Notes: a model not told the origin generated them from the letters alone. A stretch of 64,000 nucleotides of DNA from Gammaproteobacteria bacterium (GCA_965243395.1 CBDEUS010000001.1:192001-256000); one strand, 5' to 3'. Shown: positions 28,858 to 64,000, counted from the first letter of the stretch. Translations and numbers: made by a program.

Positions 28858-29056
28858 GTTTTTAGATAAAAAACTTACCGCTTTCTTTCATACTTTAAAT
28901 TATAACTGCTTCTGACTGAAAGCGGACAAATTCGCAGTAGATTTAGATCCATAAATTATTAAATGAAAGATAAAGGCTCTAAAGAAAATACATGATTAGT
29001 AAAATTCAATAACTTCACCTTTTATTAAATAATAACTAAAAAGAATAAACGAAAAT

Positions 29057-38928: not shown

Positions 38929-40020
38929 ATGGGATTCAAGTGTGGAATTGTAGGTATGCCTAACGTTGGCAAATCAACACTCTTTAATGCTTTAACTGCA
39001 ACTGAAATTGCAGCAGAAAATTATCCGTTCTGCACTATTGATCCAAATGTAGGCATTGTTCCAGTGCCGGATTCACGCTTAGACACACTCGCCAAGATTG
39101 CATCTTCAGCGGAAGTCATTCCAACGACTATAGAGTTTGTAGATATTGCAGGGTTGGTTGCAGGAGCATCTAAAGGCGAAGGATTGGGTAATCAATTTTT
39201 AGGGCATATTCGCGAAACCGATGCTATAGCACATGTGGTGCGTTGTTTTGATGATGAAAATATTGTTCATGTAGATGGAAAAGTTGATCCAATTTCAGAC
39301 CTTGAAACCATTTATACAGAATTAATATTGGCAGATTTAGAATCCGTTGATAAAGCGATTGCAAAAGTAGAACGTATTGCCAAGTCTGGAAATAAAGAAG
39401 CTTTAGCACAAGTAGAACTTTATAAAAAACTAAAAGATCATCTCGAAAACGAAAAAGATGCTTTTAGTTTTGAAATAAGTAAAGAACAAGCACCGCTTCT
39501 TCGCGAGCTTCATTTGATTACCGCTAAACCGGTATTTTATATTGCTAATGTTGCAGAAGATGGTTTTGAGAATAATGAGCATTTGAAAAAACTTGAAGAG
39601 TTAGCAAAAAAAAGATCAGTTCAAGTGATTCCAGTCTGTGCGCAAATTGAAGCCGAACTTGCTCAGTTAGATGATGCAGAACAAAAAGAATATTTAGCAG
39701 AATTAGGTTTAGAAGAACCAGGTTTAAACCGGGTAATACGCGCAGGTTACGAGTTGCTCGGGCTGCAAACATTTTTTACTGCTGGTCCAAAAGAAGCGCG
39801 TGCCTGGACAGTTGCAAAGGGTGCAACCGCACCACAAGCGGCAGGCAAGATTCACACCGATTTTGAAAAAGGATTTATCCGCGCCGAAGTAGTGGCCTAT
39901 CAGGACTATGTGGATGCCAACGGTGAGGCAGGGGCCAAAGATGCCGGTAAATGGCGCCTGGAAGGGAAAGAATATGTAATGCAGGAAGCGGATGTGGTCC
40001 ACTTTAGGTTTAATGTTTAA
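38929..40020 (+). CDS. ychF: Redox-regulated ATPase YchF
   Basis: [41 protein letters not shown]. Confidence 0.97.
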
Positions 40021-40099
40021 TACTTTTGGGTAGAATTGACAGTTTGCAGGGCGTTATATAAGGTCCGCTATCCCAAATCATGGGTCAATCTAAGCATAT

Positions 40100-40176
40100 G
40101 GCTATGTAGCTCAGTTGGTTAGAGCACAGCATTCATAATGCTGGGGTCATTGGTTCAAGTCCAATCATAGCCACCA
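40100..40176 (+). tRNA. tRNA-Met(CAT), elongator type; integration target
   Basis: GGCTATG/CATAGCC acceptor stem, anticodon loop TTCATAA, CCA end; closely resembles enterobacterial elongator tRNA-Met. Confidence 0.95.
40132..40176 (+). repeat. attL core (3' half of tRNA-Met)
   Basis: TTCATAATGCTGGGGTCATTGGTTCAAGTCCAATCATAGCCACCA, identical to 60651-60695. Confidence 0.95.
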
Positions 40177-40293: not shown

Positions 40294-40323
40294 TATGTTT
40301 TCTTTCAGCTAATAGCAATCATT
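40294..40323. repeat. Degenerate B half-site (left end of array)
   Basis: TATGTTTTCT-TTCAGCTAAT-AGCAATCATT versus B consensus nATGWCYGCT-TTCGGCCAAT-AGCGGWCATT. Confidence 0.6.
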
Positions 40324-40326
40324 TAG

Positions 40327-40716
40327 TTATTTCTTGGAGACAACTACCATTTCTTTAATTTCAAGTTCTACTTCTGTGCCATATCCTAACTTCCATGTTG
40401 GGAATGGAGCTATTAACAAAGCAATCCAGCCTTGCATCGTTGTTACTTTAACTAATCCGAGATTTTGGTCCTCATCTGAAATCTGGTATGTGTCAATGCA
40501 ATGTGTAGGAATAATGCCGAGTGTTAGTACATAGAACATTGGTTCAAAACAATGAGCACCCTCTGGAAATTCGTTCTCTTTTGTTACTGAAATTTCTTCG
40601 AGACCTTTTTGTGATAATTGTAATTCGCTCTCTGGAACGACCTTATACGTGGCACAAGCAGGCAGAAATAATGCCAAAATAAGTGGAATAAGTACTTTTA
40701 TATTGTATTGCTTCAT
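40327..40716 (-). CDS. Cassette gene: hypothetical lipoprotein
   Basis: Lipobox FLPAC; 129 aa. Confidence 0.75.
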   Translation of the reverse strand: MKQYNIKVLIPLILALFLPACATYKVVPESELQLSQKGLEEISVTKENEFPEGAHCFEPMFYVLTLGIIPTHCIDTYQISDEDQNLGLVKVTTMQGWIALLIAPFPTWKLGYGTEVELEIKEMVVVSKK

Positions 40717-40728
40717 ACAGACCTAATA

Positions 40729-40758
40729 AATTTCCGCTTTCGGCCAATAACGGACATT
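40729..40758. repeat. Single 30-bp palindrome with B core (collapsed site)
   Basis: AATTTCCGCT-TTCGGCCAAT-AACGGACATT. Confidence 0.85.
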
Positions 40759-40767
40759 TGTTCAAAA

Positions 40768-41139
40768 TTAATTACGACGTTTTCGTGGTTTAGCAACTAC
40801 TTGCCAACCATCTTCATAAATAATGATTCCTGGATCATCTGTTTTTAATGTATCTATGATAATTCCATGTTCTTCAAGTATAGCTTTTATAGCCCAAATT
40901 CTTTTTAGTGGCTCCTTAGCCTCGGGTTTAAACCAAGAAATTGCTCTAAAATGCTCTTCATCCTTTAATTCTGGAGGACTCTTTAAATGCTCCTTCAACC
41001 ATTCAATATTTTTTAATAATTCATTTTCTAAATACGTTTCTAGCTTTAAGCTATCTCTTAGCTCAAATGCAATTTGGAAAATTCCTAGATAGCTATTACT
41101 GCCTTTATTCTTAATTCGTCCTTGAAATCGGATAAACAT
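40768..41139 (-). CDS. Cassette gene: hypothetical protein
   Basis: 123 aa ending PGIIIYEDGWQVVAKP; fits exactly between repeats. Confidence 0.75.
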   Translation of the reverse strand: MFIRFQGRIKNKGSNSYLGIFQIAFELRDSLKLETYLENELLKNIEWLKEHLKSPPELKDEEHFRAISWFKPEAKEPLKRIWAIKAILEEHGIIIDTLKTDDPGIIIYEDGWQVVAKPRKRRN

Positions 41140-41161
41140 TCTTCAAATTATTTTAATTTAC

Positions 41162-41264
41162 AATGTCCGCTTTGGGTCGTTAGGAGACATTTTGCGCTTG
41201 TATGTAATTGATTCCAACCTACCACTTCTCATTTTATGACTGCTTTCGGCCATTAGCGGTCATT
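41162..41264. repeat. Full bipartite site 1 (A 41162-41191, 43-bp linker, B 41235-41264)
   Basis: AATGTCCGCTTTGGGTCGTTAGGAGACATT ... ATTCCAACC ... TATGACTGCTTTCGGCCATTAGCGGTCATT. Confidence 0.92.
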
Positions 41265-41655
41265 TGGAGTAATGAAATTGTTTATAAACTATCGTTGCAA
41301 CACTAATATTTATTAAAACAAATATTAACCCTGGGATAAGACTTATAATGCTGTTTTGAAATCCAAAAAACTTCCAGTCTGTATTTATAATTTCATATAT
41401 CCACCATCCAGTATTAAATAACACTATTAAGTAGAAAATATATTGAGACCAGTTTCTATTCGCGAATAAAGCAATACCAGCTACCAAATATGGCATAGCG
41501 TAAAAAACAAACTTCCAATGTTTGTAAACATAAGCACCCCACAGCAGATATACTCCAGCAAGAATAACAGCTAAAATTGCCAACCATTTTCCCAAAGAAC
41601 TTGTCTTGTTATTTTCTCCTAATTCACTATTTGGTGTTGAATACGGATTATCCAT
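41260..41655 (-). CDS. Cassette gene: 4-TM membrane protein
   Basis: MDNPYSTP N-terminus and four hydrophobic helices; stop codon lies inside the B palindrome. Confidence 0.8.
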   Translation of the reverse strand: MDNPYSTPNSELGENNKTSSLGKWLAILAVILAGVYLLWGAYVYKHWKFVFYAMPYLVAGIALFANRNWSQYIFYLIVLFNTGWWIYEIINTDWKFFGFQNSIISLIPGLIFVLINISVATIVYKQFHYSK

Positions 41656-41673
41656 CTGATTTATTTTATTAAT

Positions 41674-41776
41674 AATGTCTGCTTTGGGTCGTTACCAGAC
41701 ATTTTGCTCTTGTATGCTGTTGAATCCAACCGATTGCGTCCCATTTTTTGTCTCCTTTCGGCCATAAGCGGACATT
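41674..41776. repeat. Full bipartite site 2 (43-bp linker)
   Basis: AATGTCTGCTTTGGGTCGTTACCAGACATT ... AATCCAACC ... TTTGTCTCCTTTCGGCCATAAGCGGACATT. Confidence 0.92.
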
Positions 41777-42258
41777 CAATAACCGTAATATTTTGGGTTC
41801 TCTAAAACAGAACGAGCAGTTTCTTTAGCTTGTTCAGAAGTAAACTTTGCGCGAATAAGAACACCAACAGCACAATTTTCGTCTTTTCTTTTTATGCAAT
41901 TTTCAAACTCATCAGATAAGTTGAAAAACCAAAGTCTTTCATTAACTGTCATTCCTTTGTAACTTTCACTAAACCAAATATCCCATTCAAAATCCTTATC
42001 ATCAATTTTATAACTATCCCCACCCATAACTACATCAATTGCTTGCAAGTATTCATTTTGAGTTAATTCGCATGGCTCCCATTTTATATCTGTACCCAAT
42101 TTCCCATCATCAAATCCTCTTTTAAGTAAAAAATTAATTGTCGTTAAAGAGGGCCAATGCGCCATTTTCTTACAGTAAATAAATGATAAACCCAACTCGA
42201 ATAATCTAGCAGTGCTCTGATGTCCAGATTCAATTATTTGCACATTGTGGAGTTTCAT
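41776..42258 (-). CDS. Cassette gene: hypothetical protein
   Basis: 160 aa with C-terminal GMTVNERL...PKYYGY segment. Confidence 0.75.
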   Translation of the reverse strand: MKLHNVQIIESGHQSTARLFELGLSFIYCKKMAHWPSLTTINFLLKRGFDDGKLGTDIKWEPCELTQNEYLQAIDVVMGGDSYKIDDKDFEWDIWFSESYKGMTVNERLWFFNLSDEFENCIKRKDENCAVGVLIRAKFTSEQAKETARSVLENPKYYGY

Positions 42259-42272
42259 TTTTCTAAATTTAA

Positions 42273-42375
42273 AATGTCCGCTTTGGGTCGTTACCTGACA
42301 TTTTGAACTGGTATGTCTTTGTTTCCAACCTGTTTCATCCTAAATTATGTCTTCTTTCGGCCAGAAGCGGTCATT
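42273..42375. repeat. Full bipartite site 3 (43-bp linker)
   Basis: AATGTCCGCTTTGGGTCGTTACCTGACATT ... TTTCCAACC ... TATGTCTTCTTTCGGCCAGAAGCGGTCATT. Confidence 0.92.
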
Positions 42376-42805
42376 CAATAGTTTTACAGAAAGGCGGATT
42401 GTTGTTTGCGGATTCCAAGCTATTTGGATTTGTAAATGGCCAAATATTTCTATCAAAACCGTTATATTCTTTTGGGAAAAAGCCAAACGTGAATATTCTA
42501 ACTATGCCTCTTACGCAAGCTTTTATTCCTGTTTTTTTAGGCCATAAATATTCATAGTCAGATTTCAAGAATAGAATTACCCTAGCTAATTCTCTTTTAT
42601 GTTCATCTGGTATGCGCCAGTCACCTTTGAGCTTGTGAGTCTTAAAATCATCGTAAAGTGGCCAGCCTGCTTGCCACCATATTTCGTAAATAGCAAGGTC
42701 ATCTGATTCAGGAAGACGGCTTTCAAATTCAAAATTATCTATTTGCCCAGAATAGAAATGTCTTAATAATTCAGCAAATTTGTCTCGTGCTTTTCTATCA
42801 ATCAT
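42371..42805 (-). CDS. Cassette gene: hypothetical protein
   Basis: 144 aa (W-LYDD...ILFLKSDYEYLWP...WPF); stop codon inside the B palindrome. Confidence 0.75.
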   Translation of the reverse strand: MIDRKARDKFAELLRHFYSGQIDNFEFESRLPESDDLAIYEIWWQAGWPLYDDFKTHKLKGDWRIPDEHKRELARVILFLKSDYEYLWPKKTGIKACVRGIVRIFTFGFFPKEYNGFDRNIWPFTNPNSLESANNNPPFCKTIE

Positions 42806-42814
42806 TTTTTTGCG

Positions 42815-42917
42815 AATGTCCGCTTTGGGTCGTTACCGGACATTTTGCTCTTGTATGTAATTGATTCCAATCTACTACTTCTCATTTTTTGACTGCTTTC
42901 GGCCAATAGCGGTCAAA
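42815..42917. repeat. Full bipartite site 4 (43-bp linker)
   Basis: AATGTCCGCTTTGGGTCGTTACCGGACATT ... ATTCCAATC ... TTTGACTGCTTTCGGCCAATAGCGGTCAAA. Confidence 0.92.
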
Positions 42918-43308
42918 ATCTATGTTCATTATCATGATTAATTTTTCCAGTTCCATCATGATATAAATCTAGAACTACTAATCCAGAACCATCGTTACAA
43001 AAGTGTCTTGTTCCATTTTCTAACTCTTCATTTCTGGGGCAAAATATAGCAAGGCTTGTTACTTTATCTGGATCATATTTAAAAGTCGCATACACCAAGT
43101 TCGTATCAATATTATGTTGTTCGTGTATATCAGTAGCGCTTTTCGGCAAGTACTCTGGTAGCCACCCAGCAATCATCATGCCTGCTTCTTTTGCTTCATC
43201 GTAAGTTGAAAAATGAGACTCTGTATTTTCCCAATTTTTGCACCACGAAATTGATAGAAGAATAAGAATTAAGCTACCCGCGATTACTATAATAGATGAC
43301 TTAACCAT
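42913..43308 (-). CDS. Cassette gene: exported/membrane-anchored hypothetical protein (YbbD-like head)
   Basis: N-terminal hydrophobic helix; GWLPEYLPKSATDIHEQHNIDTN; stop codon inside the B palindrome. Confidence 0.7.
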   Translation of the reverse strand: MVKSSIIVIAGSLILILLSISWCKNWENTESHFSTYDEAKEAGMMIAGWLPEYLPKSATDIHEQHNIDTNLVYATFKYDPDKVTSLAIFCPRNEELENGTRHFCNDGSGLVVLDLYHDGTGKINHDNEHRF

Positions 43309-43328
43309 GATGGATTGCGTATTAAGCT

Positions 43329-43441
43329 AATGTCCGCTTTGGGTCGTTAGCAGTCATTTTATGTTTGAGTTTTTGTGATTCCAACCTAATTTCCCCCTGA
43401 GTGGTCTAGATCATGTCCGCTTTCGGCCAATAGCAGTCATT
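43329..43441. repeat. Full bipartite site 5 (53-bp linker)
   Basis: AATGTCCGCTTTGGGTCGTTAGCAGTCATT ... ATTCCAACC ... CATGTCCGCTTTCGGCCAATAGCAGTCATT. Confidence 0.92.
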
Positions 43442-43444
43442 TCT

Positions 43445-43945
43445 TTATTTATTCTCGAGTAATTGTTTTAACTTATCCTCTGCAGCTTGAAGTTCATTTT
43501 CTAAATTTTTAACACGATCATGATATCCTTGAGTAAACCTGGTCGATCCACTTGAAAGTATGCCTGATGTACCTATTCGCTCACCTGGAAGTGGCTCTAT
43601 TCCTTTTTCTAATACCTCTTTTTTATTGGCTATATCTTGCCTCGTTGCTTTTATCTCAGCATCGCGTTTTTTGCGAGCACTAATTCTTTCGTTTATACGC
43701 TGACTTATGTTGTCATGTTGTTTCTTAATCTCTTTCTGTTTTACCTTAGTTTTACTTGCAGGAATAGTATTCGCATCTTGTAAGTCTATCTCTTCAATAT
43801 TGTTTGTATTATTTGGTGGGACAGAGGTATAAACGGTTTTACCATTTTCATCCACATATTTATAAACTTTTGACTGCGAATAAGCAGCAATTGTATACAT
43901 GAGCAAAAAGACAACTATAATTGAATTATTGAATCTATTATTCAC
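43445..43945 (-). CDS. Cassette gene: DUF4124 secreted protein
   Basis: Signal peptide, VYKYVDENGKTVYTSVPP, coiled coil. Confidence 0.8.
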   Translation of the reverse strand: MNNRFNNSIIVVFLLMYTIAAYSQSKVYKYVDENGKTVYTSVPPNNTNNIEEIDLQDANTIPASKTKVKQKEIKKQHDNISQRINERISARKKRDAEIKATRQDIANKKEVLEKGIEPLPGERIGTSGILSSGSTRFTQGYHDRVKNLENELQAAEDKLKQLLENK

Positions 43946-44053
43946 TTGATTTCCAAATAAATTATTTAGATTGAAATCATTTTATAGGTCATTATCACTA
44001 CATTTAGATGTCCATTTCACAATAATACGAATGTAATGTATTTTTCTGTTGCA

Positions 44054-44083
44054 AATATCCGCTTTAGATCGTTAGCAGGCATC
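44054..44083. repeat. Degenerate A half-site (right end of array)
   Basis: AATATCCGCT-TTAGATCGTT-AGCAGGCATC. Confidence 0.7.
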
Positions 44084-44331
44084 TTAACTTATTTGATCGA
44101 TAATACTCATTAGCACAAGTAAACTACTTATATAATTATATTTAACATTTAATTGGTTAAATATAAAAGTCTGAACTAGTTCTAGAGTTGAGATTAGTTT
44201 ATATAATTAAGTCCAATATTGGACCTAAGTGTTATATATCTTAATTAGCTTAGCTATTATCGTTGAGGCTATATTATTTTACATTTAAGAATAGTAATTA
44301 AACAGTCTACATTAATTTGGAATAGTTAATT

Positions 44332-44745
44332 ATGAAACGTATTTTGATACTGGTAATCCTTTTTACTACTAATACATATGCTGGGGAAGCTGCTGTAAGT
44401 AGCGATCAATACGGTGAGAAGTGGCCTTTCACTGTTTCTGAAGGAATTGTTAAATGCAAAAAATATCAAAGTGGGAATCATATTCTTGATGCTGTTACGT
44501 TTTTATCAGAAGGCAAAGAGTATGCAATTAACGGTCATGCTATAACGGTTTCAAAAGACTCAAGTCTTAAAATAAATCAATCCATTGATAGCATATGGAA
44601 AGAAGACCCTAAATATAATGAAACGGTAAAAGAGCTTGCTGTAGCTTTAAATAAATCAGAAAAAGAAATTAGAGATGAAATGGGTTCGCCAATGCGCGTA
44701 AGTATAAGTCCTGTTTTAGATAAAGGGTTAAAACTTTGTAATTAA
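44332..44745 (+). CDS. YebY/DUF2511-like secreted protein
   Basis: Signal peptide, VSSDQYGEKWPFTVSEGIVKC, YAING, GLKLC. Confidence 0.75.
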   Translation: MKRILILVILFTTNTYAGEAAVSSDQYGEKWPFTVSEGIVKCKKYQSGNHILDAVTFLSEGKEYAINGHAITVSKDSSLKINQSIDSIWKEDPKYNETVKELAVALNKSEKEIRDEMGSPMRVSISPVLDKGLKLCN

Positions 44746-45424: not shown

Positions 45425-45736
45425 TACGGAAACATTTTCACATATTTTGGTCCGAAAACGGACCTAACACTTTTACTTTAATAACAAAGGCTATATGAGT
45501 TTTCTTTTAGAATATTTTTCATACAACATTTTTTGAATCTGAATTCAACAATAAAATAATTGTTATTTATAAATTCATTCACACACAATTACGAATAAAA
45601 ATTTCTTAATGTAAATTGTGACGATGTCAATTATTTGTCGTTGCTACAAATACTTCTGTAATTAAACTATCGTAATTAACAATTATCATAATTGTTAGTT
45701 AATAAAAACAACAATTCAGATTTGGGGAGTGTGAGT

Positions 45737-48700
45737 ATGAGGCCGTTCAATCTTGTTCGTTCAGTTTGTAAGAATTTAAAAGCGAGAAATGAGAGTTCAT
45801 TCTCTAATCTTCCAAATGATATTTTAATTCGATTTAAATTTTTAACATTACTTGTAATTCTATATTCATCATTGTTGCAACCATTGCACGCTCTTGAATT
45901 TTGCGGAGGTTCTTATGGTTCATGCAGTGCAGCGCAAGACGCATGTGATACAGTAACCGGTCACAGTAATTGTGACAGCCCGCCAACTAATAGCAGTAAT
46001 AATCATTGTCAGTCTGGAACTCATTATCACTCTGGAAATGTATTCAAAAGTGGCGGTTTTGATAACTATCACTTTACCTGCCTATCCGGCGGAGGTTGTG
46101 GTACGGGTATTACAGAATACACAATCAATAGTTTATGTTTACCAGAAGGGTTTAAAGTTGGAAATACGAAAGGTGCTCCACAAATGTGTGTGGGCAATCC
46201 TCTTAATCCTGCGACTGGAAATAAATTTCAGGCAGAACAAGACATCTCCATCCCGAATAGCGATTTATCCTTTTCGCGTTACTACAATTCAGTAGACGAA
46301 GGGCATGCGGGTGAATTAATCATTAAGGGAAGATGGACTTATGATTATCTTCAAAGACTAGATCCTTCTAATGGATTTGTAACCGTATATCGTCCTGATG
46401 GGAAGGAACTCGTATTCGATTGCCCAGCCACAACTGGGTCTTGTACAGGAGACACCGATCTCAAAATAGAACTTGAGAAAACTTCTACAGGATATTCGCT
46501 ATTAACTTCCAGTAATAACACAGAAGACTATGATACGAATGGAAAACTGCAATCCATTACCTCACTCGCGGGCCAAACACAAACATTATCTTATAACAGC
46601 ACATCTGGATTACTGGAAACCGTTACTGATCATTTTAATCGTACCTTAACGTTTACTTTTGGGACAAGTAGTCGAATAGAAACCATTACCGATCCAAATG
46701 GCGAAGTCTACACATATGATATAGACACGGATAAAAATCTACTATCGGTAACGTATCCCGATGACACACCTGGTACCACAACGGATAATCCAAAACGTGA
46801 GTTTCAATACAACGATACAAATTTTGATTCATTACTCACAGGTATTGTGGATGAGAATGGAAACTTATATGCCGAATTTGATTACGACACCCAAGGACGG
46901 GCGATTCAATCAAAACATGCGGGAGGTGTGGAGCAAGTTGATTTAGTTTATAACGTGGATGGCACTACAACTGTCACGGATTCATTAGGTGCAACGAACA
47001 CCTTCACCTTTGATATCGTGGCATTTGTTCCCAAAACAACGGCTATATCCGGTGGCCAATGTGGCAGCGGTTGTAGTTCACAAGCACAAGCGCAAACTTA
47101 TGACACGAATGGTTATATTGCATCCAGTACCGATTTTGAAGGGAATGTAACTAACTTTGTCAATAACAGTCGGGGACTACAAACTTCAAGAACCGAAGCG
47201 GTGGGAGAATTAGAAGAGCGCACGATAACGACTGACTGGCATTCGACTCTCAGGCTACCTACCAAGATCACAGACAATGGTAAAGAAACTTCCATTACTT
47301 ATAACACTAATGGTCAGGTTCTTACCCGAACTGAAAAAGATTTATCCAATAACAATACGCGCACGACAACGTTTACCTATGATAGTAATGGGAATGTGTT
47401 GACTATCAATGGACCGCGCACTGATATTGATGACATTACCACCTTCACCTATGACACGTCTGGCAATCGTGCCAGCATGAGCGTTGACCCCGATGGCGCA
47501 GGATCTGCACCTGCACAAGTCACTAACTATACTTCTTATGATAATAGCGGGCGTTTGCTCTCCATGACCGATCCTAATGGCGTGGTCACAACGATGGACT
47601 ATGACCCACGTGGGCGCTTAGAGTCGCGTACGGTTGCAAGTGGAACATCCGAAGCTGCAACCACTACTTTTGAATACGATGGCGTGGGGAATGTCACAAA
47701 AATCACATTGCCAAATAATAGTTATCTTTCTTACACGTACGATACTGCACAACGCTTAACGAACATTGAAGACAATCTTGGAAATAAAATTACCTATACC
47801 TTAGATGACTTGGGTAATCGCACCAAAGAAGATGTGTTTGATACCAGCAGCACCTTACGCCGTACACAAAGCCGTGTGTTTGATCAACTCAGTCGAATGA
47901 CCCAGCACACAGGAGGAGCAAGTCAAGTAAGCATTTTTGGTTATGATGGTAATGGTAATCAGGTTTCTGTACTAGACCCTTTAAGCCGAAGCTCTACCTC
48001 TTCCTTTGATGCGTTGAATCGTCTCATTACTTCAACCGATCCGGCATTAAGTGATACAGACTATACGTATGATGATCGCGATAACTTGATCAGTGTATCG
48101 GATGCACGAAGTCTTACTACCACCTACACCTATGATGATTTAGATAACTTAACTCAACTCGTTAGTCCAGACACAGGAACAACTACCTATACGTATGATG
48201 ATGCTGGGAATCGACTTACCCAAACCGATGCCAGAAGTAAAACTACAACCTATACCTATGATGCGTTAAATCGAGTCAGTTCTATAACTTATCCTGATAC
48301 TAGTTTGAATGTCACGTTTACATATGACTCAGGAACGAATGGTAAAGGTCGTTTAACGGGCATGACCGACGCATCAGGTACGACAACATACACCTATGAC
48401 AAGCGTGGAAATCTTGCGAGTGAATCAAAAGTCATCAGCGGTCAAACGTATCTTACGAGTTATGCGTATGATGATGCAGACAATGTCACACAATTAACCT
48501 ATCCAAGTGGGCGCACGGTTGATTACGAATACAATAGCATCGGACAAGTGGTTCAAGTGGAGACTACCTTAGGCAGTAATACCAACATTGTTGCATTTGA
48601 TATTAACTACCACCCATTTGGACCTATTAAAAGTTTAATCTTTGGTAACGGGTTAAGCACTGCATACACATTTGATCAAGACTATCGACTTACCGATGCG

Positions 48701-50815
48701 GTTACAGACAATAATACTCATTCATTGACGTACGCTTATGATCTTGGCGATAACATTTCTACGATCACTGACAATAATGATTCAACGCGTAATCAATCTT
48801 TCACGTATGACAATTTAGATCGCTTATTAAGTGGTAACGGGATTTATGGTTCACTGAGTTACACTTATGATGTAGTCGGTAACCGTCTCACGGAAACAAA
48901 AAATTCAGTAACCGATACTTATAGTTATGCGACTACCAGTAATCAAGTACAAACTATCACTGGTGGTCAAATTAATTCGTTTACTTACGATGCTGCAGGA
49001 AATATCACAGTTGGAAGCGGGGATACCTTCACGGTAAATGATGCCAATCGTATGGCAACCGCAGCAAGTGGTTCGACAACAGCTACGTATACCTATAACG
49101 GCAAAGGCGAACGTACTATAAAAGTAGTGGGTTCTACGACAACGATTTACCACTATGACCAAAATGGACAGCTAATAGCTGAGTCCGATGCACTCGCAAA
49201 TTCACAAGCTGAATATATCTATCTCAATGGGCAACGCCTTGCGTTAATTGATCCTAATGGAACAGGAACGGGCGCATCGGGTATTGTCATCGATAACAGT
49301 GATTCTAGCTCGACTAGTACGATTGGAAATTGGACGACTACCGTAACGGGTACGGGAGATTACGAAGGATCTGATGTTGCGCAGTCAGCATTGAATAGCA
49401 TTGAAATCATTATTGATGATGTTGATTCTTCAACGTCATCTGTAGGTAATTGGTGGCTTAGCACAGCTTCTCATTGGTATGGAGGTACGGCTCAGCATAT
49501 AAGATGGCCAGGCTCAGGTAGTCAAATTTTTACTTGGAATTTTTCTTCTATATCAAGTGGTAATTATGAGGTAGCTGCCCAATGGTGGGCTCACCCGCAA
49601 TATACATCAATTGCACCCTATACTATAAATCACACACAAGGCAGCACGCTTGTATTGGGAGATCAAACCCAAAATCCGGGCTGGAATGTGCTCGGAACAT
49701 TTTCGCTTGATTCCACCAGCAGTATCGAACTAAGCGATGATGCAAATAATAAATATGTCATGGCCGATGCGATACGCTTAATTGATAACACCATACCCAC
49801 ATTCACTTGGGATGCACCGGTGGGCACGTTTGATGTGTATGCAGAATGGACACAAGATTCGAGTCATGCAACGGATTCAACTTATACACTTCATCATTCA
49901 ACAGGACAGACAACTGTAACGGTGAATCAACAAACCAATGGTATAGGTTTGAATTATTTAGGTACAGCAACTTTTGATGCAACAGGAAAAGTTGTTTTGG
50001 CTAGCGGGTCAGATGGAAATGTCATTGCCGATGCAATTCATTTTATAGGGACTTCCACATCCACCACTGCATTGTATTACATTCACAGTAATCACTTAGA
50101 CACCCCTCAAGCCATTACCGACGGAAGTAAAACGGTTGTTTGGAGTGCGGATTATGAACCGTTTGGGGAGACAAATATAACCGTTAATACTTTAACGAAT
50201 AATCTACGATTCCCTGGCCAATATGCTGATAGTGAAAGTGGATTACATTACAACTACTTTAGAGATTACAACCCTAGTATTGGGCGCTATATGCAATCAG
50301 ATCCGATTGGGTTACTTGGCGGATTTAATACCTATGTTTATGTGAAAGCAAATCCACAAAAATTTACCGACAACTTAGGTTTATATGATTCTGATTTTGA
50401 TGCAGCAGAACAAACAATCAATAGATTATTCAAAGGATACAATATTCCTCCTATTTCGACATGTAGCGGTGGTGTAGATTGTACAAGACGCGGATTAGAT
50501 ACATTTGATGAAGGTGGTTATTTACCAGAAACAGATGAAATTATTATAAATGAATTAGATTTTGGTACTGGAGATAATATGAGAGACATAGCTCTCAATG
50601 ATGTACAAGCATATAATCTACTGAACACTTATATCCATGAAATCTTGCATGCAAATCAAAACTTGTTTGGTGATTTCGCAATGAGAAACTTACAAAATGG
50701 ACGAGGTTCTCCGGGAGCATTTTTGCATGACACAATTTATCGATGGGCAGACATTCTAACAAAAAGAAACTTTCAGTCATTCAATGAGTTGAGAGAGCAA
50801 TGCGAAATTAAGTAA
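45737..50815 (+). CDS. Rhs/YD-repeat polymorphic toxin with DUF6531-like domain, nested golvesin-like domains and HExxH tip
   Basis: GNPLNPATGNKF, many YD repeats, core end LRFPGQYAD..YNYFRDYNP.IGRYMQSDPIGL.GG.N.Y.YV..NP..TDNLGL, then YIHEILH; ATG 45737 after GGGGAG. Confidence 0.92.
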   Translation: MRPFNLVRSVCKNLKARNESSFSNLPNDILIRFKFLTLLVILYSSLLQPLHALEFCGGSYGSCSAAQDACDTVTGHSNCDSPPTNSSNNHCQSGTHYHSGNVFKSGGFDNYHFTCLSGGGCGTGITEYTINSLCLPEGFKVGNTKGAPQMCVGNPLNPATGNKFQAEQDISIPNSDLSFSRYYNSVDEGHAGELIIKGRWTYDYLQRLDPSNGFVTVYRPDGKELVFDCPATTGSCTGDTDLKIELEKTSTGYSLLTSSNNTEDYDTNGKLQSITSLAGQTQTLSYNSTSGLLETVTDHFNRTLTFTFGTSSRIETITDPNGEVYTYDIDTDKNLLSVTYPDDTPGTTTDNPKREFQYNDTNFDSLLTGIVDENGNLYAEFDYDTQGRAIQSKHAGGVEQVDLVYNVDGTTTVTDSLGATNTFTFDIVAFVPKTTAISGGQCGSGCSSQAQAQTYDTNGYIASSTDFEGNVTNFVNNSRGLQTSRTEAVGELEERTITTDWHSTLRLPTKITDNGKETSITYNTNGQVLTRTEKDLSNNNTRTTTFTYDSNGNVLTINGPRTDIDDITTFTYDTSGNRASMSVDPDGAGSAPAQVTNYTSYDNSGRLLSMTDPNGVVTTMDYDPRGRLESRTVASGTSEAATTTFEYDGVGNVTKITLPNNSYLSYTYDTAQRLTNIEDNLGNKITYTLDDLGNRTKEDVFDTSSTLRRTQSRVFDQLSRMTQHTGGASQVSIFGYDGNGNQVSVLDPLSRSSTSSFDALNRLITSTDPALSDTDYTYDDRDNLISVSDARSLTTTYTYDDLDNLTQLVSPDTGTTTYTYDDAGNRLTQTDARSKTTTYTYDALNRVSSITYPDTSLNVTFTYDSGTNGKGRLTGMTDASGTTTYTYDKRGNLASESKVISGQTYLTSYAYDDADNVTQLTYPSGRTVDYEYNSIGQVVQVETTLGSNTNIVAFDINYHPFGPIKSLIFGNGLSTAYTFDQDYRLTDAVTDNNTHSLTYAYDLGDNISTITDNNDSTRNQSFTYDNLDRLLSGNGIYGSLSYTYDVVGNRLTETKNSVTDTYSYATTSNQVQTITGGQINSFTYDAAGNITVGSGDTFTVNDANRMATAASGSTTATYTYNGKGERTIKVVGSTTTIYHYDQNGQLIAESDALANSQAEYIYLNGQRLALIDPNGTGTGASGIVIDNSDSSSTSTIGNWTTTVTGTGDYEGSDVAQSALNSIEIIIDDVDSSTSSVGNWWLSTASHWYGGTAQHIRWPGSGSQIFTWNFSSISSGNYEVAAQWWAHPQYTSIAPYTINHTQGSTLVLGDQTQNPGWNVLGTFSLDSTSSIELSDDANNKYVMADAIRLIDNTIPTFTWDAPVGTFDVYAEWTQDSSHATDSTYTLHHSTGQTTVTVNQQTNGIGLNYLGTATFDATGKVVLASGSDGNVIADAIHFIGTSTSTTALYYIHSNHLDTPQAITDGSKTVVWSADYEPFGETNITVNTLTNNLRFPGQYADSESGLHYNYFRDYNPSIGRYMQSDPIGLLGGFNTYVYVKANPQKFTDNLGLYDSDFDAAEQTINRLFKGYNIPPISTCSGGVDCTRRGLDTFDEGGYLPETDEIIINELDFGTGDNMRDIALNDVQAYNLLNTYIHEILHANQNLFGDFAMRNLQNGRGSPGAFLHDTIYRWADILTKRNFQSFNELREQCEIK

Positions 50816-50847
50816 ATCTAGGCATTGCTTGGTATAATCATCTCAAT

Positions 50848-51249
50848 ATGAAAGGATCAATAAAAGTATTTATAGTTGTACTTATACTATTGGCATTACC
50901 AATTTACCCTAAGTTTCCGGTACAAGTTGCAGATCCTGTGGGAGTGGAAGATTCTCGAATTAAAGTAAATATAAATACCGATGAGTTAGAAGTAATACTC
51001 CATACGATTAGAGGAAAAAAATTTGATTTTTTATATAGTAGATTAAAAAATAGGAATACAAGACCTCTTATTGGAATCTACGACATATCTGGCAAAAGTA
51101 CTGATGAAAAATTATCTCAATTAGATAATTCAATAAAAGATTCTGAAATAATAGCTATTACTGGATCGAAAGGTTATAGAGAGTCGTATTATTTTAATAG
51201 AGATGGTGCATCACTAAAATTTATCACTTCACGAGATATCATGATCTAA
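50848..51249 (+). CDS. Putative immunity protein (membrane-anchored/exported)
   Basis: Directly downstream of the Rhs tip; N-terminal hydrophobic helix. Confidence 0.55.
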   Translation: MKGSIKVFIVVLILLALPIYPKFPVQVADPVGVEDSRIKVNINTDELEVILHTIRGKKFDFLYSRLKNRNTRPLIGIYDISGKSTDEKLSQLDNSIKDSEIIAITGSKGYRESYYFNRDGASLKFITSRDIMI

Positions 51250-53331: not shown

Positions 53332-53444
53332 TATGTATGCATTGGATAATAAGCAGACATTTTAAGTTTATAAATTATTGAATCTAACCTGACATTCTCC
53401 TCAATGGTTTAATTTATGACAACTTACGGCCAATAGCAGGCGTG
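53332..53444. repeat. Degenerate orphan copy of the bipartite cassette site (53-bp linker)
   Basis: TATGTATGCATTGGATAATAAGCAGACATT ... AATCTAACC ... TATGACAACTTACGGCCAATAGCAGGCGTG. Confidence 0.65.
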
Positions 53445-54004: not shown

Positions 54005-54120
54005 TACTTAGTTAGTTATTATTGCTTAGCAAAGTCTTCATATTTATCCATAAATGCACGTACTTCGCTCGTAATGTTCTATCCTAAAAGAAGCACTTTT
54101 ATATGAGTTTGAAATGACCG

Positions 54121-54411
54121 CTACTGCTCAAACGGCAATTCAAGTTGACGGTCTACAATTGCCTGTAATGAGTCTTGCAGTTGTTGCGTAGAGATTTCTT
54201 GTCGATTGTATAAATCTAGTAGACAAAACGATTTATTGCCATCGATACCATGTGCTTTTGAAAACAGGTACATGCAATCATCGTGGTTAACTGCGTATTC
54301 GGGGTATTTTTTATCTAATTCGATCTGCTCAGTTTGTGTTGCAGCCTCGCGGGCACGAAGATATTGAATATATGGAGACTTCTCAGCTTCCCATTGATTA
54401 TTTATGTTCAT
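54121..54411 (-). CDS. Hypothetical protein
   Basis: 96 aa; AGGGGG RBS upstream. Confidence 0.55.
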   Translation of the reverse strand: MNINNQWEAEKSPYIQYLRAREAATQTEQIELDKKYPEYAVNHDDCMYLFSKAHGIDGNKSFCLLDLYNRQEISTQQLQDSLQAIVDRQLELPFEQ

Positions 54412-59252: not shown

Positions 59253-60497
59253 TTAAATATCATTTAACAAAGCCACAGCCGCAGCCTTATGCTCAGGCGC
59301 TAAATGTGCATAGCGTAGCGTCATGGATAGCTCTGAATGACCAAGCAATTCACGTACAGTATTTAAATCAACACCTGCCATGACTAACTTGCTCGCAAAG
59401 TGGTGTCGTAAATCATGAAAGCGAAAGTCTTTTATCTGAGAAGTCTTTCGTAGGTTTTCCCAAGCGGTTTGAATGTTATCGAAACGTTTACCTGTATTAG
59501 GATTAGGGAATACAAATCTCTTTGATTCAGTCTGATTTCTCCAAGCGATTAACGTACCCAGTGCTTCATCGTTTAGAGGGATGTGACGTGTTGAACCTGA
59601 TTTAGATGAAACACCTTCAACAGTTATGTTTCTTTTCTTGAGATCGACGTTTTCCCATCGAAGATCAAACAACTCACCTCTGCGCATACCTGTGTTTATG
59701 GCTACTAGAATCATGGGCTTTAAGTAATCAGCAAATGACTTTTTGCTTAAATCTTCTAATAGTTTCTTGCCTCTAGCTGCTCTCCAATCATTTCCAGATT
59801 GTCTATCCTTGATAATACTTTTCTCTCTAGAATCTAATGCTTTTCTGAGTCTCTTTTCTTCATCATCCGTCAAGTAGCGTATCTTTCCTTTACTATCGAC
59901 CTTTAAAGGTTTGACCTTTGTAAGAGGGTGCTTGTTAATAACTCCCCATTCGAGTGCTTTAGATAAGACGGCTTTCAACGCCATCAACTGACGATTAACC
60001 GTTGAGGGTTTGAGACCCTCCTTAATTTCCACAGTCCGCCACTTTTGTATTTCCCATGGAGTGATTTCTTCCATATTGTGTTTCATAAGATGAGGGAAGG
60101 CGAGGTTAAGTTTCTTGAGAGTTTCCTCACCCGATTTACGTTCGACGAGTACCCAAGGTTTATATTTATTCTCGATGAACTTGCCTAGGACTTGATGCTT
60201 TCTGGCTTCACTTCTTTTCTTGGCTGATTTTTTGTTTTCTTGAATGTCCTGGCCTTTGGCTAATTCACCTATTTTGATCTTTGCATGTTCACGAGCTTGA
60301 TCAGCAGTCAGTTTGCCATACTTGCCTAAGGTGTATTCTTTACCTGAACCATTGTGACGATAGTAAATACAAAAGCTTTTCACTCCGCTTGGCATGACGC
60401 GTAAGAAGAATCCAGGCTGTTCGGTATCCCAAACCTTGTAGTACTTAGATCGTGGCTTAAAAGCCTTTACAGTGCGTGTCGTAAGCTTCTCTTTCAC
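59253..60497 (-). CDS. int: Tyrosine recombinase/integrase with N-terminal arm-binding domain
   Basis: N-terminal VWD..PGF.LRV.PSG.KSF...TLGKYG; catalytic TGMRRGE, K, FHDLRH, LLGH, RYAH. Confidence 0.95.
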   Translation of the reverse strand: MKEKLTTRTVKAFKPRSKYYKVWDTEQPGFFLRVMPSGVKSFCIYYRHNGSGKEYTLGKYGKLTADQAREHAKIKIGELAKGQDIQENKKSAKKRSEARKHQVLGKFIENKYKPWVLVERKSGEETLKKLNLAFPHLMKHNMEEITPWEIQKWRTVEIKEGLKPSTVNRQLMALKAVLSKALEWGVINKHPLTKVKPLKVDSKGKIRYLTDDEEKRLRKALDSREKSIIKDRQSGNDWRAARGKKLLEDLSKKSFADYLKPMILVAINTGMRRGELFDLRWENVDLKKRNITVEGVSSKSGSTRHIPLNDEALGTLIAWRNQTESKRFVFPNPNTGKRFDNIQTAWENLRKTSQIKDFRFHDLRHHFASKLVMAGVDLNTVRELLGHSELSMTLRYAHLAPEHKAAAVALLNDI

Positions 60498-60518: not shown

Positions 60519-60650
60519 TAATTAAAATACACTCATATACCTTGAGTGACTAAAATAAGGTTAATAAAAGCCTATAAATATAGGGATTATAACGAATATT
60601 AGGTATATAAAGGTATCTTACAGGATAGGGAAGGATAAGGCTATAACGCT

Positions 60651-60695
60651 TTCATAATGCTGGGGTCATTGGTTCAAGTCCAATCATAGCCACCA
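60651..60695 (+). repeat. attR core (duplicated 3' half of tRNA-Met)
   Basis: 45-bp identity to 40132-40176, starting at the anticodon loop. Confidence 0.95.
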
Positions 60696-60713
60696 CTCTT
60701 TCGAGTGGATTTT
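60693..60713. terminator. Hairpin after attR, probably the original tRNA-distal terminator
   Basis: CCACTC-TTTC-GAGTGG followed by ATTTT. Confidence 0.45.
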
Positions 60714-60730
60714 ACTCGCAAAAATTATTT

Positions 60731-61933
60731 TTAAGAGGCCATTGCAAGTTTTGGTTTCTTGCGATGATCTTTTTGGCCCGGGATATATTTAGCGATGCGA
60801 GGAACGGAATGAGCAAGCACGCAAATATCATTTATACCTCGTTGTTCTGCGGTAGTTTCGATGTTTTCAGTAATTAAGTCTGCAATATTTTGATTCGTTA
60901 TACAGCGTATCGTCGCGTATTCCTGATTTACATTTGCGTGTGCAAGTTCATAGTCGTCATCACCCATTGCAACAAAGCGTGAATAACTGACATTCACACC
61001 GGGTGCTCCTGAATCCAACATTAAGTCCATGAATTGTTGTGACTGATCACGATTGACTACAGATGAAAAACACACTTGATTGGTTTGAGTTGTTTTATTT
61101 TGTTCCAAAAATTTAAGCCCTGTGCCTTTGCCTTGTCCTCCTACATCAAAAACTGCTTGATCACGCCAATGCGTGTGACCGGTTAAATGATCAATAGCGT
61201 GAATAATTTGTTGGGTGTTTGCAGGATAGTGAGGATTAGCGATGCGGCTAGGTAAATTAAACATGCCTTTATCAATCGGTAAGCTATACATGAAGCCGCG
61301 TGCGGGCAAATGAAATTCTCCGGCTTTTGCCATTGCGGTAAAGATTCCTTCTACATCCGAATTGTCCGCAAGAACCATTAATACTTCTTGTTCACTATCT
61401 TTTGTAATACGTAGCCAACCGAGTCGATCACGAAGACCTTTACCTTCTGCATAATAGACTACAGGGCCGTGTGCACCGGCATTGATGGCTGCTTTAGCGA
61501 TGCGGTCACTTAAGCTATGACTCACGCTACAAAAAATTGCACTTAAATTTTCTGAAAGCTTATGAGAATCTTTTGTGGTGTTTAAAGCTTCAGTTGTTCG
61601 TAAATTATGAAAGTTAGAACCCACATAAGCACTTTCACAAGGTGTGCTAAAGACGGCGCCCGTTGCTTGTAAGTCTAATTTGCCTTCTTCAATAACAAGT
61701 CCAAGAACACGATCGACATCATGTACGGGAACAACCATTTGTAACATGGTTTTTGAAGGGCTAATAGGAGGCACCCACGACTTCCACCAGTGCTCGCGTA
61801 ATAAAGTACCGCGTGCTTTTGACACTAATACATCAGTGACTTCTCGAGATGTTAGTGTATTAACAACTGTATCTGCTGATTGGTTAGGCAATACAGCTGT
61901 GATGAGTGAGATTTCGTGCTTACTATTAAACAT
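60731..61933 (-). CDS. Multi-domain P-II-like protein
   Basis: Three P-II-like segments (ARGTL..., AKAAINAGAHG...GKGLRDRLG...EQEVL, LDSGAPG); adjacent to a DUF1538 gene. Confidence 0.6.
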   Translation of the reverse strand: MFNSKHEISLITAVLPNQSADTVVNTLTSREVTDVLVSKARGTLLREHWWKSWVPPISPSKTMLQMVVPVHDVDRVLGLVIEEGKLDLQATGAVFSTPCESAYVGSNFHNLRTTEALNTTKDSHKLSENLSAIFCSVSHSLSDRIAKAAINAGAHGPVVYYAEGKGLRDRLGWLRITKDSEQEVLMVLADNSDVEGIFTAMAKAGEFHLPARGFMYSLPIDKGMFNLPSRIANPHYPANTQQIIHAIDHLTGHTHWRDQAVFDVGGQGKGTGLKFLEQNKTTQTNQVCFSSVVNRDQSQQFMDLMLDSGAPGVNVSYSRFVAMGDDDYELAHANVNQEYATIRCITNQNIADLITENIETTAEQRGINDICVLAHSVPRIAKYIPGQKDHRKKPKLAMAS

Positions 61934-61935
61934 GA

Positions 61936-63879
61936 CTATGCGGGTCCTAATTGTGTAGAGTCGCTATCGATTTCGGTAGCAGGGTCCGGTAAATTTTCTT
62001 TCTGCGCTTTTTTCTCATTTCTTTGTGTGTATAGGCCTACAGTCAAAACCGTCATGATCGGGCCCACTGAAGCAAGGGCTAAAATACCAAAACCGTCACT
62101 TACACCGGGAATATTCGCACCCACACCAAGACCCATTGCTAATACGAGGGGTACCGTTATAGGGCCTGTTGTAACACCCGCGCTGTCCCATCCGAAATTA
62201 ACAAAGCTGTTTGGTGCGCGCCAAGTAAGAATCAATACAAGCAAATAAGGAGGCATCAACATCCAAATTAAAGGTAAGTTGTAGGCCATCTTTACAATGC
62301 CTGCACCGATGCCTAATCCCACGCCAATTGCCACAGCTTGCATTAACAATTTCTTACGGAACGCACCCACCGTAATTCGTTCCACGGTGTCACCTAATGC
62401 ATTGAGTGCGGGTTCGGCAAGTGTTGCACCATAACCGAGGAAAAACGCGAAACCTATGGCAACGAGTTTGCCTGCATGACCATCGCCAAATAATGGACCT
62501 TCAACATGATCAAACCCCCAAGGAACAATTTCTGCAAAGGCGAGTGGAATATTACTGCCTAGTTGCCCACCTAGTGGTGTAAGCCCAAGCGCGATACCCA
62601 AACCAAACAATGCCATGCCCACCAGCGCAAAGGTTACTCCTATGCCTACATCACTATCTTTATCTAAGCGTTGTTTGAGGATCAAACGTAAGACGAAATA
62701 TAAAAACAAACATAAGGGGATAATTGCACGAAGTGCTCCCATAAATGCTTCCCACATTTGTTCTGAAAGAGAAGTTTCTTTATCCCAGGTTTTATCACTG
62801 ATTAATTCAAAATTTCGGGTATATATTTTTTTAACAACGAGATTTGGATCAGTTACTACAATTTGTCCATCAACAAGCTCTGCTTTTCCACCCTTAAAAT
62901 CTAATTCATAGCCATTTGGTAAAGCACCCGTTTCTAAGTAAGTCGCAAATTCTTCATCCGTAATTGCTTCTAATTTAGGATCTAGTGCTTCAGCGCTGTC
63001 AGCAACTTCTGATTGGCTTTGAACAATTTCAGAGCCTTTATAATTTGAAGCACCATAGTAATCATTACTAGTGTAGTGGTATAAAGCGAGTAGCAGTACG
63101 GCCAGAATAGGGAATAGAGAGGCTAGTGTGACAATTCCAAATCCAGAATGACCGCTGCCCCCAGAACCACTACTCACAACTCGACAAACCCCAATTCCCA
63201 AAGCAAGTACAAGAGGAACGGTTACAGGACCTGTAGTTACCGCACCGCAGTCCCATGCTAAACCTAAAACATCGCGTAATTCTGGAACTTGACTAAAATA
63301 AAAAGACATTGCGAGCAATCCGAGTACTGCAGGGATAGCCAGAAATTTCAATGGCCATGCATAAAAAAATCGCAACACACCCAACATAACCGCAAGACCG
63401 ACGCCCACTCCAACACTTGTTACAAGTTGATTAGAAAAATCATTCAGTAGGCTGTATAACAATGGCGCTTCACTGGCTATTACACCACTTCCTGCAGCTT
63501 TTAGTACTGCGATGGCTGGTTCTGCAAATGTAGCACCCGCTCCAAGTAAGAATGCAAAGAGTAAAATAAGTGGCATTCCACTTTTACGTGGAAGCATACT
63601 TCCAATTATTTCGCCAAGCGGCATTAGACCTAACCGCAGGCCTTCCATGAAAAACATTAATCCGATTGCAACAATGAATATTCCAACTGCAATCATCGCT
63701 GCATATACGATTGGTAGTTGTAAAACGAGTAATTGGAAAATGATGAGATAAAAAACGATAAACCAAATGCCTTCAATTTGGCTTAAAAAATTCCGTTTTC
63801 CATATGGCCATAAAACTCGAAATGTGTCACGTAGACCCAAACGAAAACGAGGGTTATCCGGAAGCTGAGAGGATGCCAT
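61936..63879 (-). CDS. Tandem DUF1538 membrane protein
   Basis: Two repeats of AT(F/L)AEPA and WD(C/S)(G/A)(A/G)VTTGP(V/I)TVPLVLA(L/M)G. Confidence 0.88.
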   Translation of the reverse strand: MASSQLPDNPRFRLGLRDTFRVLWPYGKRNFLSQIEGIWFIVFYLIIFQLLVLQLPIVYAAMIAVGIFIVAIGLMFFMEGLRLGLMPLGEIIGSMLPRKSGMPLILLFAFLLGAGATFAEPAIAVLKAAGSGVIASEAPLLYSLLNDFSNQLVTSVGVGVGLAVMLGVLRFFYAWPLKFLAIPAVLGLLAMSFYFSQVPELRDVLGLAWDCGAVTTGPVTVPLVLALGIGVCRVVSSGSGGSGHSGFGIVTLASLFPILAVLLLALYHYTSNDYYGASNYKGSEIVQSQSEVADSAEALDPKLEAITDEEFATYLETGALPNGYELDFKGGKAELVDGQIVVTDPNLVVKKIYTRNFELISDKTWDKETSLSEQMWEAFMGALRAIIPLCLFLYFVLRLILKQRLDKDSDVGIGVTFALVGMALFGLGIALGLTPLGGQLGSNIPLAFAEIVPWGFDHVEGPLFGDGHAGKLVAIGFAFFLGYGATLAEPALNALGDTVERITVGAFRKKLLMQAVAIGVGLGIGAGIVKMAYNLPLIWMLMPPYLLVLILTWRAPNSFVNFGWDSAGVTTGPITVPLVLAMGLGVGANIPGVSDGFGILALASVGPIMTVLTVGLYTQRNEKKAQKENLPDPATEIDSDSTQLGPA

Positions 63880-64000
63880 TTTTTTATAAATTCGAATTAA
63901 GTTAATGAGTTGTATCGGCTGTAGCTGATATTCCTTAAATCAAACTCTGAAATTGCGCAAAATGGTTAATAATTAAATTGTTGAAATGAGCAAATAGAAG

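Follow-up and report, generated by a model that had tools for sequence, protein, structure and literature searches.

A hypervariable array of single-gene cassettes with an apparently undescribed, widely distributed 12-6-12 site in a gammaproteobacterial genome

The stretch of DNA analysed here (64,000 nucleotides (nt), in the following the window) comes from a Gammaproteobacteria bacterium (GCA_965243395.1, CBDEUS010000001.1:192001-256000) and contains, at 40,294 to 44,083, an array of seven small open reading frames (ORFs) that all lie on the minus strand (40327-43945; 129, 123, 131, 160, 144, 131 and 166 amino acids (aa) according to the ORF call) and that alternate with copies of one repeat. 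The encoded proteins are mutually unrelated (no blastp match among them at E<0.3), and the 3' end of every ORF coincides with, or lies a few bases from, a near-palindrome of ~30 base pairs (bp). This holds for all seven, because a degenerate site of full length (40295-40322) is found 5 nt past the last stop codon. The near-palindromes are distinguished by the six bases at their centre and are called P1 (GGGTCG) and P2 (CGGCCA); a P1 and a P2 on either side of a spacer form a composite unit. The source genome (2.58 Mb, 100% complete) is referred to as G000 and the genomes used for comparison as G001-G017 etc.; positions outside the window are preceded by their contig (C1, C2). The features of the array are the following:

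40295-40322, plus strand: degenerate P2-like site of full length, past the stop codon of the 129-aa ORF, at the tRNA-proximal end of the array
40327-40716, minus strand: cassette ORF, 129 aa, with a lipoprotein-like N-terminus (by eye) and no Pfam family
40728-40759, plus strand: single P2 site, centre CGGCCA
40768-41139, minus strand: cassette ORF, 123 aa, no family; one paralogue, 30% identical, at G000 C2:138394-138780
41160-41265, plus strand: composite unit, with P1 at 41160-41193, a promoter-like spacer and P2 at 41234-41265, which contains the TGA stop of the next ORF
41260-41655, minus strand: cassette ORF, 131 aa, hydrophobic and membrane-like (by eye)
41672-41777, plus strand: composite unit, with P1 at 41672-41705, spacer and P2 at 41746-41777
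41776-42258, minus strand: cassette ORF, 160 aa, no family
42271-42376, plus strand: composite unit, with P1 at 42271-42304, spacer and P2 at 42344-42376
42371-42805, minus strand: cassette ORF, 144 aa, with a 61%-identical homologue in G003
42814-42916, plus strand: composite unit, with P1 at 42814-42846, spacer and P2 at 42887-42916
42913-43308, minus strand: cassette ORF, 131 aa, with a signal-like or lipoprotein-like N-terminus (by eye)
43327-43442, plus strand: composite unit, with P1 at 43327-43360, a spacer of the 83-nt type (TTGGAA-N17-TAAAAT on the minus strand) and P2 at 43410-43442
43445-43945, minus strand: cassette ORF, 166 aa, DUF4124, the first gene of the array
44053-44085, plus strand: degenerate full P1 site, upstream of the first cassette and followed by an AT-rich gap of ~250 bp
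44332-44745: divergent DUF2511 gene, beyond the AT-rich gap

The repeat was recovered as three families: one of 60 nt, with copies that start at 41162, 41674, 42273, 42815 and 43329 (spacing 512, 599, 542 and 514 nt), one of 127 nt (4 copies in the window) and one of 36 nt (11 copies in the window, those at 40726 and 44051 among them). The composite units are 74-81% identical across 127 nt. An 18-mer from P1 (≤3 mismatches) matches the window six times, where 0.01 matches are expected by chance, and the 11-mer core of P2 (≤1 mismatch) seven times, six of them within the array, where 0.74 are expected. The GC content of the array (34.6%) is lower than that of the genome (38.2-38.9%). A preliminary description of this DNA had reported seven unrelated minus-strand genes separated by one repeat, and its ORF lengths and repeat starts were reproduced. 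The terminal copies, which it took for half sites at 40294 and 44054, are both degenerate sites of full length (P2-like and P1, respectively), and the bipartite site that it proposed holds good as a P2/P1 pair but consists of two related near-palindromes of ~30 bp, of which a single one suffices elsewhere. The cassettes themselves provided few functional clues: Pfam assigned no family above cut-off to six of the seven and DUF4124 to the remaining one, with no match to an immunity family, and a sequence search of the PDB together with a protein atlas gave nothing informative on function for the window cassettes that were tried.

The site has a 12-6-12 anatomy, with inverted arms of ~12 bp (ATGTCCGCTTT / TTAGCGGACAT) around an asymmetric centre of 6 bp. 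In a set of 186 sites collected from G000 and its relatives, the two centre classes account for 78 (P1) and 79 (P2) sites. The centre is the best conserved part of the site (1.73 bits per position), and the arms are conserved unequally and in a mirrored manner (P1: left 1.55 vs right 1.34 bits; P2: right 1.42 vs left 1.29 bits). Judged by their sequence, the centres and inner arms of P1 and P2 are direct and not inverted repeats. Within a composite unit P1 and P2 are 73-83 nt apart (start to start) and, read in the coding direction, the order is P2, a spacer of ~45 nt, P1 and, after another 10-30 nt, the next start codon; P2 often gives the upstream ORF its TGA stop, via AATGAC. Covariation between the arms is absent at the two polymorphic pairs of the 186 sites (Watson-Crick fraction 0.53 vs 0.52 expected, and 0.40 vs 0.51), and in 39 composite units covariation did not exceed expectation under any of the four pairing schemes considered (local P1, local P2, outer cross, inner cross). 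In these 39 units the outer arms are better conserved than the inner arms. The folds predicted for single-stranded DNA are inconsistent (two local hairpins in one unit, a weak long-range fold with z -0.9 in another), and an Rfam search at E≤10 returned the tRNA and chance matches only and no known RNA family; Rfam holds no attC family. Because covariation is absent and the folds are inconsistent, selection for a hairpin such as that of attC, REP elements or terminators is unlikely, and a double-stranded protein-binding site appears the more likely interpretation. The conserved two-class centre and the absence of covariation would fit a protein site in duplex DNA at which the overlaps of the two partners have to be the same, and the anatomy resembles that of the core site of a tyrosine recombinase, which is the enzyme class that we infer.

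The spacer of the composite unit probably constitutes a cassette-borne promoter, as suggested by its conservation pattern: TTGG[AT][AT]-N16-18-[CT]A[AT]AAT is kept in 25 of the 39 spacers across genomes, the intervening bases being variable. The five window spacers (minus strand; 41194-41233, 41706-41745, 42305-42343, 42847-42886 and 43361-43409) contain GGTTGGAAT as a -35-like and YAAAAT as a -10-like element, separated by a constant 17 nt. A generic promoter scan placed one of these five above threshold and found 8 promoter-like sites in the region, where 18.4 are expected; terminator-like hairpins with T-runs number 0 vs 2.2 expected in a scan of the region. A transcript from the putative spacer promoter may begin within P1.

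The repeat is not confined to the locus in the window. A scan of G000 with a profile hidden Markov model of the site (nhmmer, E<0.05), as proposed in the preliminary description, yielded 87 sites distributed over both contigs; 12 clusters account for 82 of these, and the remaining 5 are single. The copies are not scattered without relation to gene boundaries, as these 82 lie in arrays, 3' of genes, and the orientation of the site is fixed relative to the gene that it directly follows. A co-oriented ORF stops within -5 to +20 nt of the site for 45 of 91 G000 sites, as compared to 7 of 91 for genes in the other orientation; the stop codon lies in or at the site in 19 of 91 cases, 14 additional sites represent the second member of a composite unit, and the start of the next ORF is found within 50 nt of the site for 40. 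In several arrays a single site between genes serves without a composite unit. A cassette comprises a leader of 10-50 nt, one ORF and a site of ~30 bp, and in many cases the stop codon is part of the ORF-proximal arm of this site. Core genes, too, have a copy behind them in a few instances (C1:88213 and 220905).

The site is also found well beyond this genome. The P1 18-mer (≤2 mismatches) is present in 13 of the 14 other genomes of the genus, in 5 of 10 other genera of the family and, among the 16 other families sampled, in one. More than 117 loci of the species collection, in many phyla, contain the exact 18-mer; its carriers include Woeseiaceae, Thiotrichales, Sphingomonas, Caulobacteraceae, Brevundimonas, Massilia, Polynucleobacter, Pseudomonas, Lysobacter, Nitrospinaceae and Nitrospirota, and thereby Alpha-, Beta- and Gammaproteobacteria, Nitrospinota and other groups. 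Small arrays with unknown ORFs between site doublets were found in Massilia and in an alphaproteobacterial metagenome-assembled genome (MAG), where the neighbours are ordinary genes, and inverted doublets of the site in Pseudomonas and an alphaproteobacterial MAG. Searches with the composite unit gave no match in E. coli (20,395 records) or in phages, and a sole match of 32 nt (E=0.3) in plasmids (72,556 records); in viral contigs a 15-mer occurs at 41 loci, of which a regular expression marks 5 as full palindromes.

The content of the arrays is hypervariable at fixed loci. In all three syntenic arrays that were compared between G000 and its ~90%-identical relative G012, the flanks are 85-91% identical and the interiors are unrelated and differ in length. 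For a fourth syntenic mini-array the homology ends at C1:422944, in the last bases of the site that follows a core gene, and is regained after 1.5 kb. Units of gene plus site recur between arrays and genomes: C1:289958-291550 corresponds to G012 C5:111645-113240 (92% over 1.6 kb, non-syntenic), C1:45072-45538 to G012 C5:262772 (89.7% over 467 nt, non-syntenic), C2:166023-166473 to G012 C1:16744-17197 (73%) and C1:874560-875102 to G002 C23 (81%). The ends of the high-scoring segment pairs of these recurrent cassettes lie within 50 nt of a site centre, and the two copies that are best resolved agree in the ORF-proximal arm and the centre but not in the distal arm. The 144-aa cassette of the window is present in only 2 of 60 other genomes; its G003 homologue (61% protein identity) again has a site at its 3' end that supplies the TGA stop. 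Mobility of the cassettes is supported by these comparative data, in agreement with the gene-cassette array of the preliminary description. No excision product was seen in Logan contigs of one sample (four runs), in which the array 'joints' have sides of 23-31 nt and derive from contigs that belong to other arrays with the same site. A second hairpin-like repeat, GCCATCCAT..GGTCGAAG, occurs in G012 (locus L168, ~6700, and locus L221, ~6840), where it marks two array or insertion boundaries at which G000 has a P-type site.

The array in the window is one of ~12 arrays of single-gene cassettes in this genome, and part of a real, widespread and apparently undescribed cassette system. A literature search found no description of the site (the motif-string matches listed were unrelated and mostly primer-like, and a search by concept gave integron papers only), which is not proof of absence. 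As to how it works, we estimate the probability at about one half that this is an integron-like or dif-module-like cassette system that operates by site-specific recombination with a trans-acting enzyme. Cassettes would then be excised and integrated through conservative site-specific recombination in which both partner sites have an identical centre, catalysed by an enzyme that would be encoded in trans, away from the arrays; the arrays would serve as integron-like or dif-module-like stores of accessory genes. The one in the window rides a tRNA-Met island as cargo.

A number of observations weigh against such a recombination system. G000 encodes only five tyrosine recombinases (XerC, XerD and three P4-type integrases), and no serine recombinase, IS110-type enzyme or Y1 enzyme was found in it. 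No protein family, recombinases included, recurs beside its 12 arrays, and of the families formed by ORFs of at least 150 aa at 117 distant loci, none extends over more than 6 of these loci. The complete genome G011, with 47 P1 matches, has only three tyrosine recombinases. The integrase of the tRNA-Met island (59253-60497), which the preliminary description had put forward as one possibility for the recombinase, has homologues at E≤1e-20 in no more than 3 of the 30 other family genomes, and none was found in G001 or G011, both of which are complete and site-rich; since site-rich relatives do without it, this integrase is not likely to be the cassette enzyme, and the eleven other arrays have no recurrent recombinase. 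A consistently linked recombinase or HUH nuclease, for which the preliminary description had suggested a search, was likewise not found at the arrays. Moreover, the end of homology at a site is confounded with the end of homology at an ORF, because the sites abut the ORFs, and the two comparisons of empty with occupied positions between G000 and G012 revealed replacements and no clean insertion of a single cassette. Finally, an identity with dif was rejected: the canonical dif of the genome, AACTTCGCATAATATATATTATGTTAAAT, found with a dif search motif, lies at C1:959296, at the maximum of the cumulative GC skew (the terminus), and is unlike the arms of P1 and P2. The preliminary description had already held that the repeat contains no dif sequence.

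Other explanations have to account for the same site and the same arrays, and the foremost among them are homology-driven shuffling and a REP-like element. The lack of a linked or co-distributed recombinase would be natural if the sites and 127-nt units were kept for another function in cis (a 3'-end insulator plus promoter) and served as portable homology for RecA-dependent shuffling, e.g. after DNA uptake, with no dedicated recombinase involved. The extended identity of the composite units and the promoter-like pattern in 25 of 39 spacers point in the same direction, but many arrays have only mismatched single sites of 30 bp, which should be a poor substrate for RecA, the terminator-like hairpins with T-runs are missing from the region, and neither the two discrete centre classes with their most-conserved centre nor the exact identity of the 18-mer across phyla is explained, so that we regard homology-driven shuffling as unlikely. 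Alternatively, the ~30-bp element could itself be mobile, a selfish palindrome of the REP/MITE kind that inserts behind genes and accumulates in dispensable accessory regions, which would make the cassette appearance secondary. Like REP, BIME and REPIN elements, the site is a short imperfect palindrome 3' of genes that occurs genome-wide as singles, doublets and clusters, with tens to about a hundred copies per genome; the inverted doublets in Pseudomonas and the alphaproteobacterial MAG are reminiscent of BIMEs and REPINs, and the few copies behind core genes fit as well. We nevertheless consider this quite unlikely, given that the sites, although present on both contigs, are mostly concentrated in accessory-gene arrays (82 of 87), that they travel with the gene, homologous genes of different genomes keeping their site down to 61% protein identity, and that there is no match in the E. 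coli records. An identity with REP-RAYT elements was rejected on the basis of the missing hairpin covariation and of the distribution of the Y1 transposase (RAYT, PF01797), which G000 lacks; of the other genomes examined, 1 of 14 in the genus and 4 of 24 in the family encode it, as compared to 13 of 14 and 18 of 24 that have the site.

The arrays recall those of integrons, in that small, unrelated, co-oriented and mostly promoterless ORFs are each followed by a site that can overlap the stop codon, and in that the content at a fixed locus is hypervariable and cassettes are common to several arrays. They could accordingly be seen as CALINs (attC clusters without an integron integrase) of a divergent attC family, which the length of the composite unit (105-127 nt, within the size range of attC) and its better conserved outer arms would accommodate. 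This is extremely improbable, and an attC identity was rejected: none of the 5 units in the window has the motifs RYYYAAC/GTTRRRY at its ends, as the preliminary description had noted, each motif occurs in 1 of 186 sites, and IntI, the absence of which from the window it had also reported, is absent from the genome as a whole (six-frame TIGR02249 search; best match 83.4 bits vs a cut-off of 265, the matches being XerC/D and phage-type integrases). Of five distant site-bearing genomes only one has IntI, on contig C13, whereas its exact-match site is on C14. Other differences with integrons are that a single site of ~30 bp, duplex-like and devoid of cross-arm covariation, suffices in many arrays in place of one conserved long hairpin, that there is no attI platform, and that a genome holds ~12 arrays rather than one. 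Moreover, attC is conserved mainly in structure, whereas the sequence of the present site is conserved across phyla. The 12-6-12 anatomy with one better conserved arm (left in P1, right in P2) also brings to mind a dif-module-like system run by the host XerC/XerD, with the sites as non-canonical Xer substrates comparable to the pdif sites of Acinetobacter plasmids. XerC and XerD are the sole recombinases that are universal in these genomes, and xerD and xerC each lie 3-4 kb from a mini-array of two sites that flank one small ORF (C1:422915-427334 and C2:247852-251932), a proximity that is suggestive but post hoc; the neighbourhood of xerD is syntenic in G012. For Acinetobacter, PMC13141974 reports that recombination requires matching 6-bp spacers and that module pairs excise between directly oriented sites. 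The similarities with the present arrays comprise sites of the type arm-6 bp-arm, unequal arms, the absence of a recombinase in cis and the alternation of ORF modules with an ORF-less module, as for C/D dif modules. We judge a Xer-driven system very unlikely all the same, as the site has no recognisable arm sequence in common with the dif of the genome, P1 and P2 and indeed all sites are direct repeats by sequence and not inverted, even if the arm conservation of P1 and P2 is mirrored, the xer genes are also present in the site-free relatives G014, a member of the same genus, and G017, and the arrays are found on the chromosomes of uncultured Gammaproteobacteria and numerous other taxa instead of on Rep_3 plasmids.

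The Bacteroidales rAID-1 arrays are defined by a 5' gene for a XerD-like recombinase (10.1101/471110). They share with the arrays described here co-directional genes, a low or skewed GC content and repetitive intergenic sequences, and a likely RHS polymorphic toxin is found in the neighbourhood of the window array; they differ in that no recombinase heads the arrays here, in the phylum and in that no immunity-family match was found for the cassettes, a distinction based on gene content and phylum. The architecture is that of integron cassettes, and the system falls outside the integron, pdif and rAID-1 classes.

The array in the window is the cargo of a tRNA-integrated element, as had been surmised. 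In G012 the counterparts of 39610-40176 (92.6% identity) and 60648-64000 (89.5%) are adjacent and overlap each other, and therefore 40177-60647 is an insertion of 20,471 bp. It is bordered by direct repeats of 48 bp that correspond to the 3' end of tRNA-Met, and is absent from G012, the closest relative. The features concerned, and one that lies outside the island, are:

28905-28931, minus strand: lone weak site directly after tRNA-Gln, outside the island
40100-40176, plus strand: tRNA-Met (CAT), the 3' 48 bp of which are the left copy of the direct repeat
53333-53441, plus strand: degenerate relic of a composite unit near a Sel1-repeat ORF in the island (nhmmer scores 7.6 and 10.3)
54112-54126: degenerate relic of a single site near a Sel1-repeat ORF in the island
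59253-60497, minus strand: P4-type tyrosine integrase (Arm-DNA-bind_3 and Phage_integrase), at the far end of the island
60648-60695, plus strand: the direct repeat of 48 bp again (3' end of tRNA-Met), in its right copy, which marks where the 20.5-kb island ends

The integrase explains the insertion of the island and not the cassettes. In the only sample that contains the island, it forms a separate contig of 20,549 nt, with a depth of 4.2/3.5/0/14.1 in the four runs vs 7.5/5.7/2.7/16.7 for the flank; this lower depth suggests that a fraction of the cells in the population lacks the island. The island also encodes an RHS-repeat protein of 1707 aa (45692-51249; RHS_repeat, DUF6531, two Golvesin_C, RHS core and a variable C-terminus), followed by an ORF of 133 aa, which together likely represent a polymorphic toxin/immunity pair. 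The lone site after tRNA-Gln occupies a slot of 63 nt; the same slot in G012 holds a segment of 419 nt that includes a small ORF but lacks a site. Of the three tRNA-Met genes in G000, two adjoin arrays, and an array of 16 kb with ~30 cassettes in G012 (C1, locus L164, 14739-31055) starts right after another tRNA-Met, with no integrase in view; its far end adjoins three large ORFs (496, 505 and 649 aa), which from their sizes we guess to be a nuo-like operon. No conserved attI-like region was seen by eye downstream of the tRNA-Met genes that adjoin arrays. Outside the window, ~25 tRNA genes are packed within 4 kb (G000 C2:140340-144477).

Integrons are the textbook device for the capture and stockpiling of single genes, and dif modules and rAID arrays indicate that the idea of a cassette arose more than once. 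The system described here is a real cassette architecture with a site unlike attC, dif and REP-RAYT elements: the same architecture comes with a different and highly conserved site, occurs in many arrays per genome, is spread very widely among taxa and lacks a recombinase of its own. Tentatively, and at somewhat less than even odds, it might represent a second, phylum-spanning route of cassette capture, characterized by a 12-6-12 site, the movement of cassettes between many chromosomal arrays and some linkers with a promoter, the enzyme of which would be encoded elsewhere and could be a housekeeping factor or a member of an unrecognised recombinase family. If true, this would explain a class of hypervariable islands of small genes in environmental Proteobacteria, it would provide a conserved handle of 18-30 nt with which cassettes could be fished from metagenomes, in the way attC primers are used, and it would point to a pair of enzyme and site of possible use as a recombination tool.

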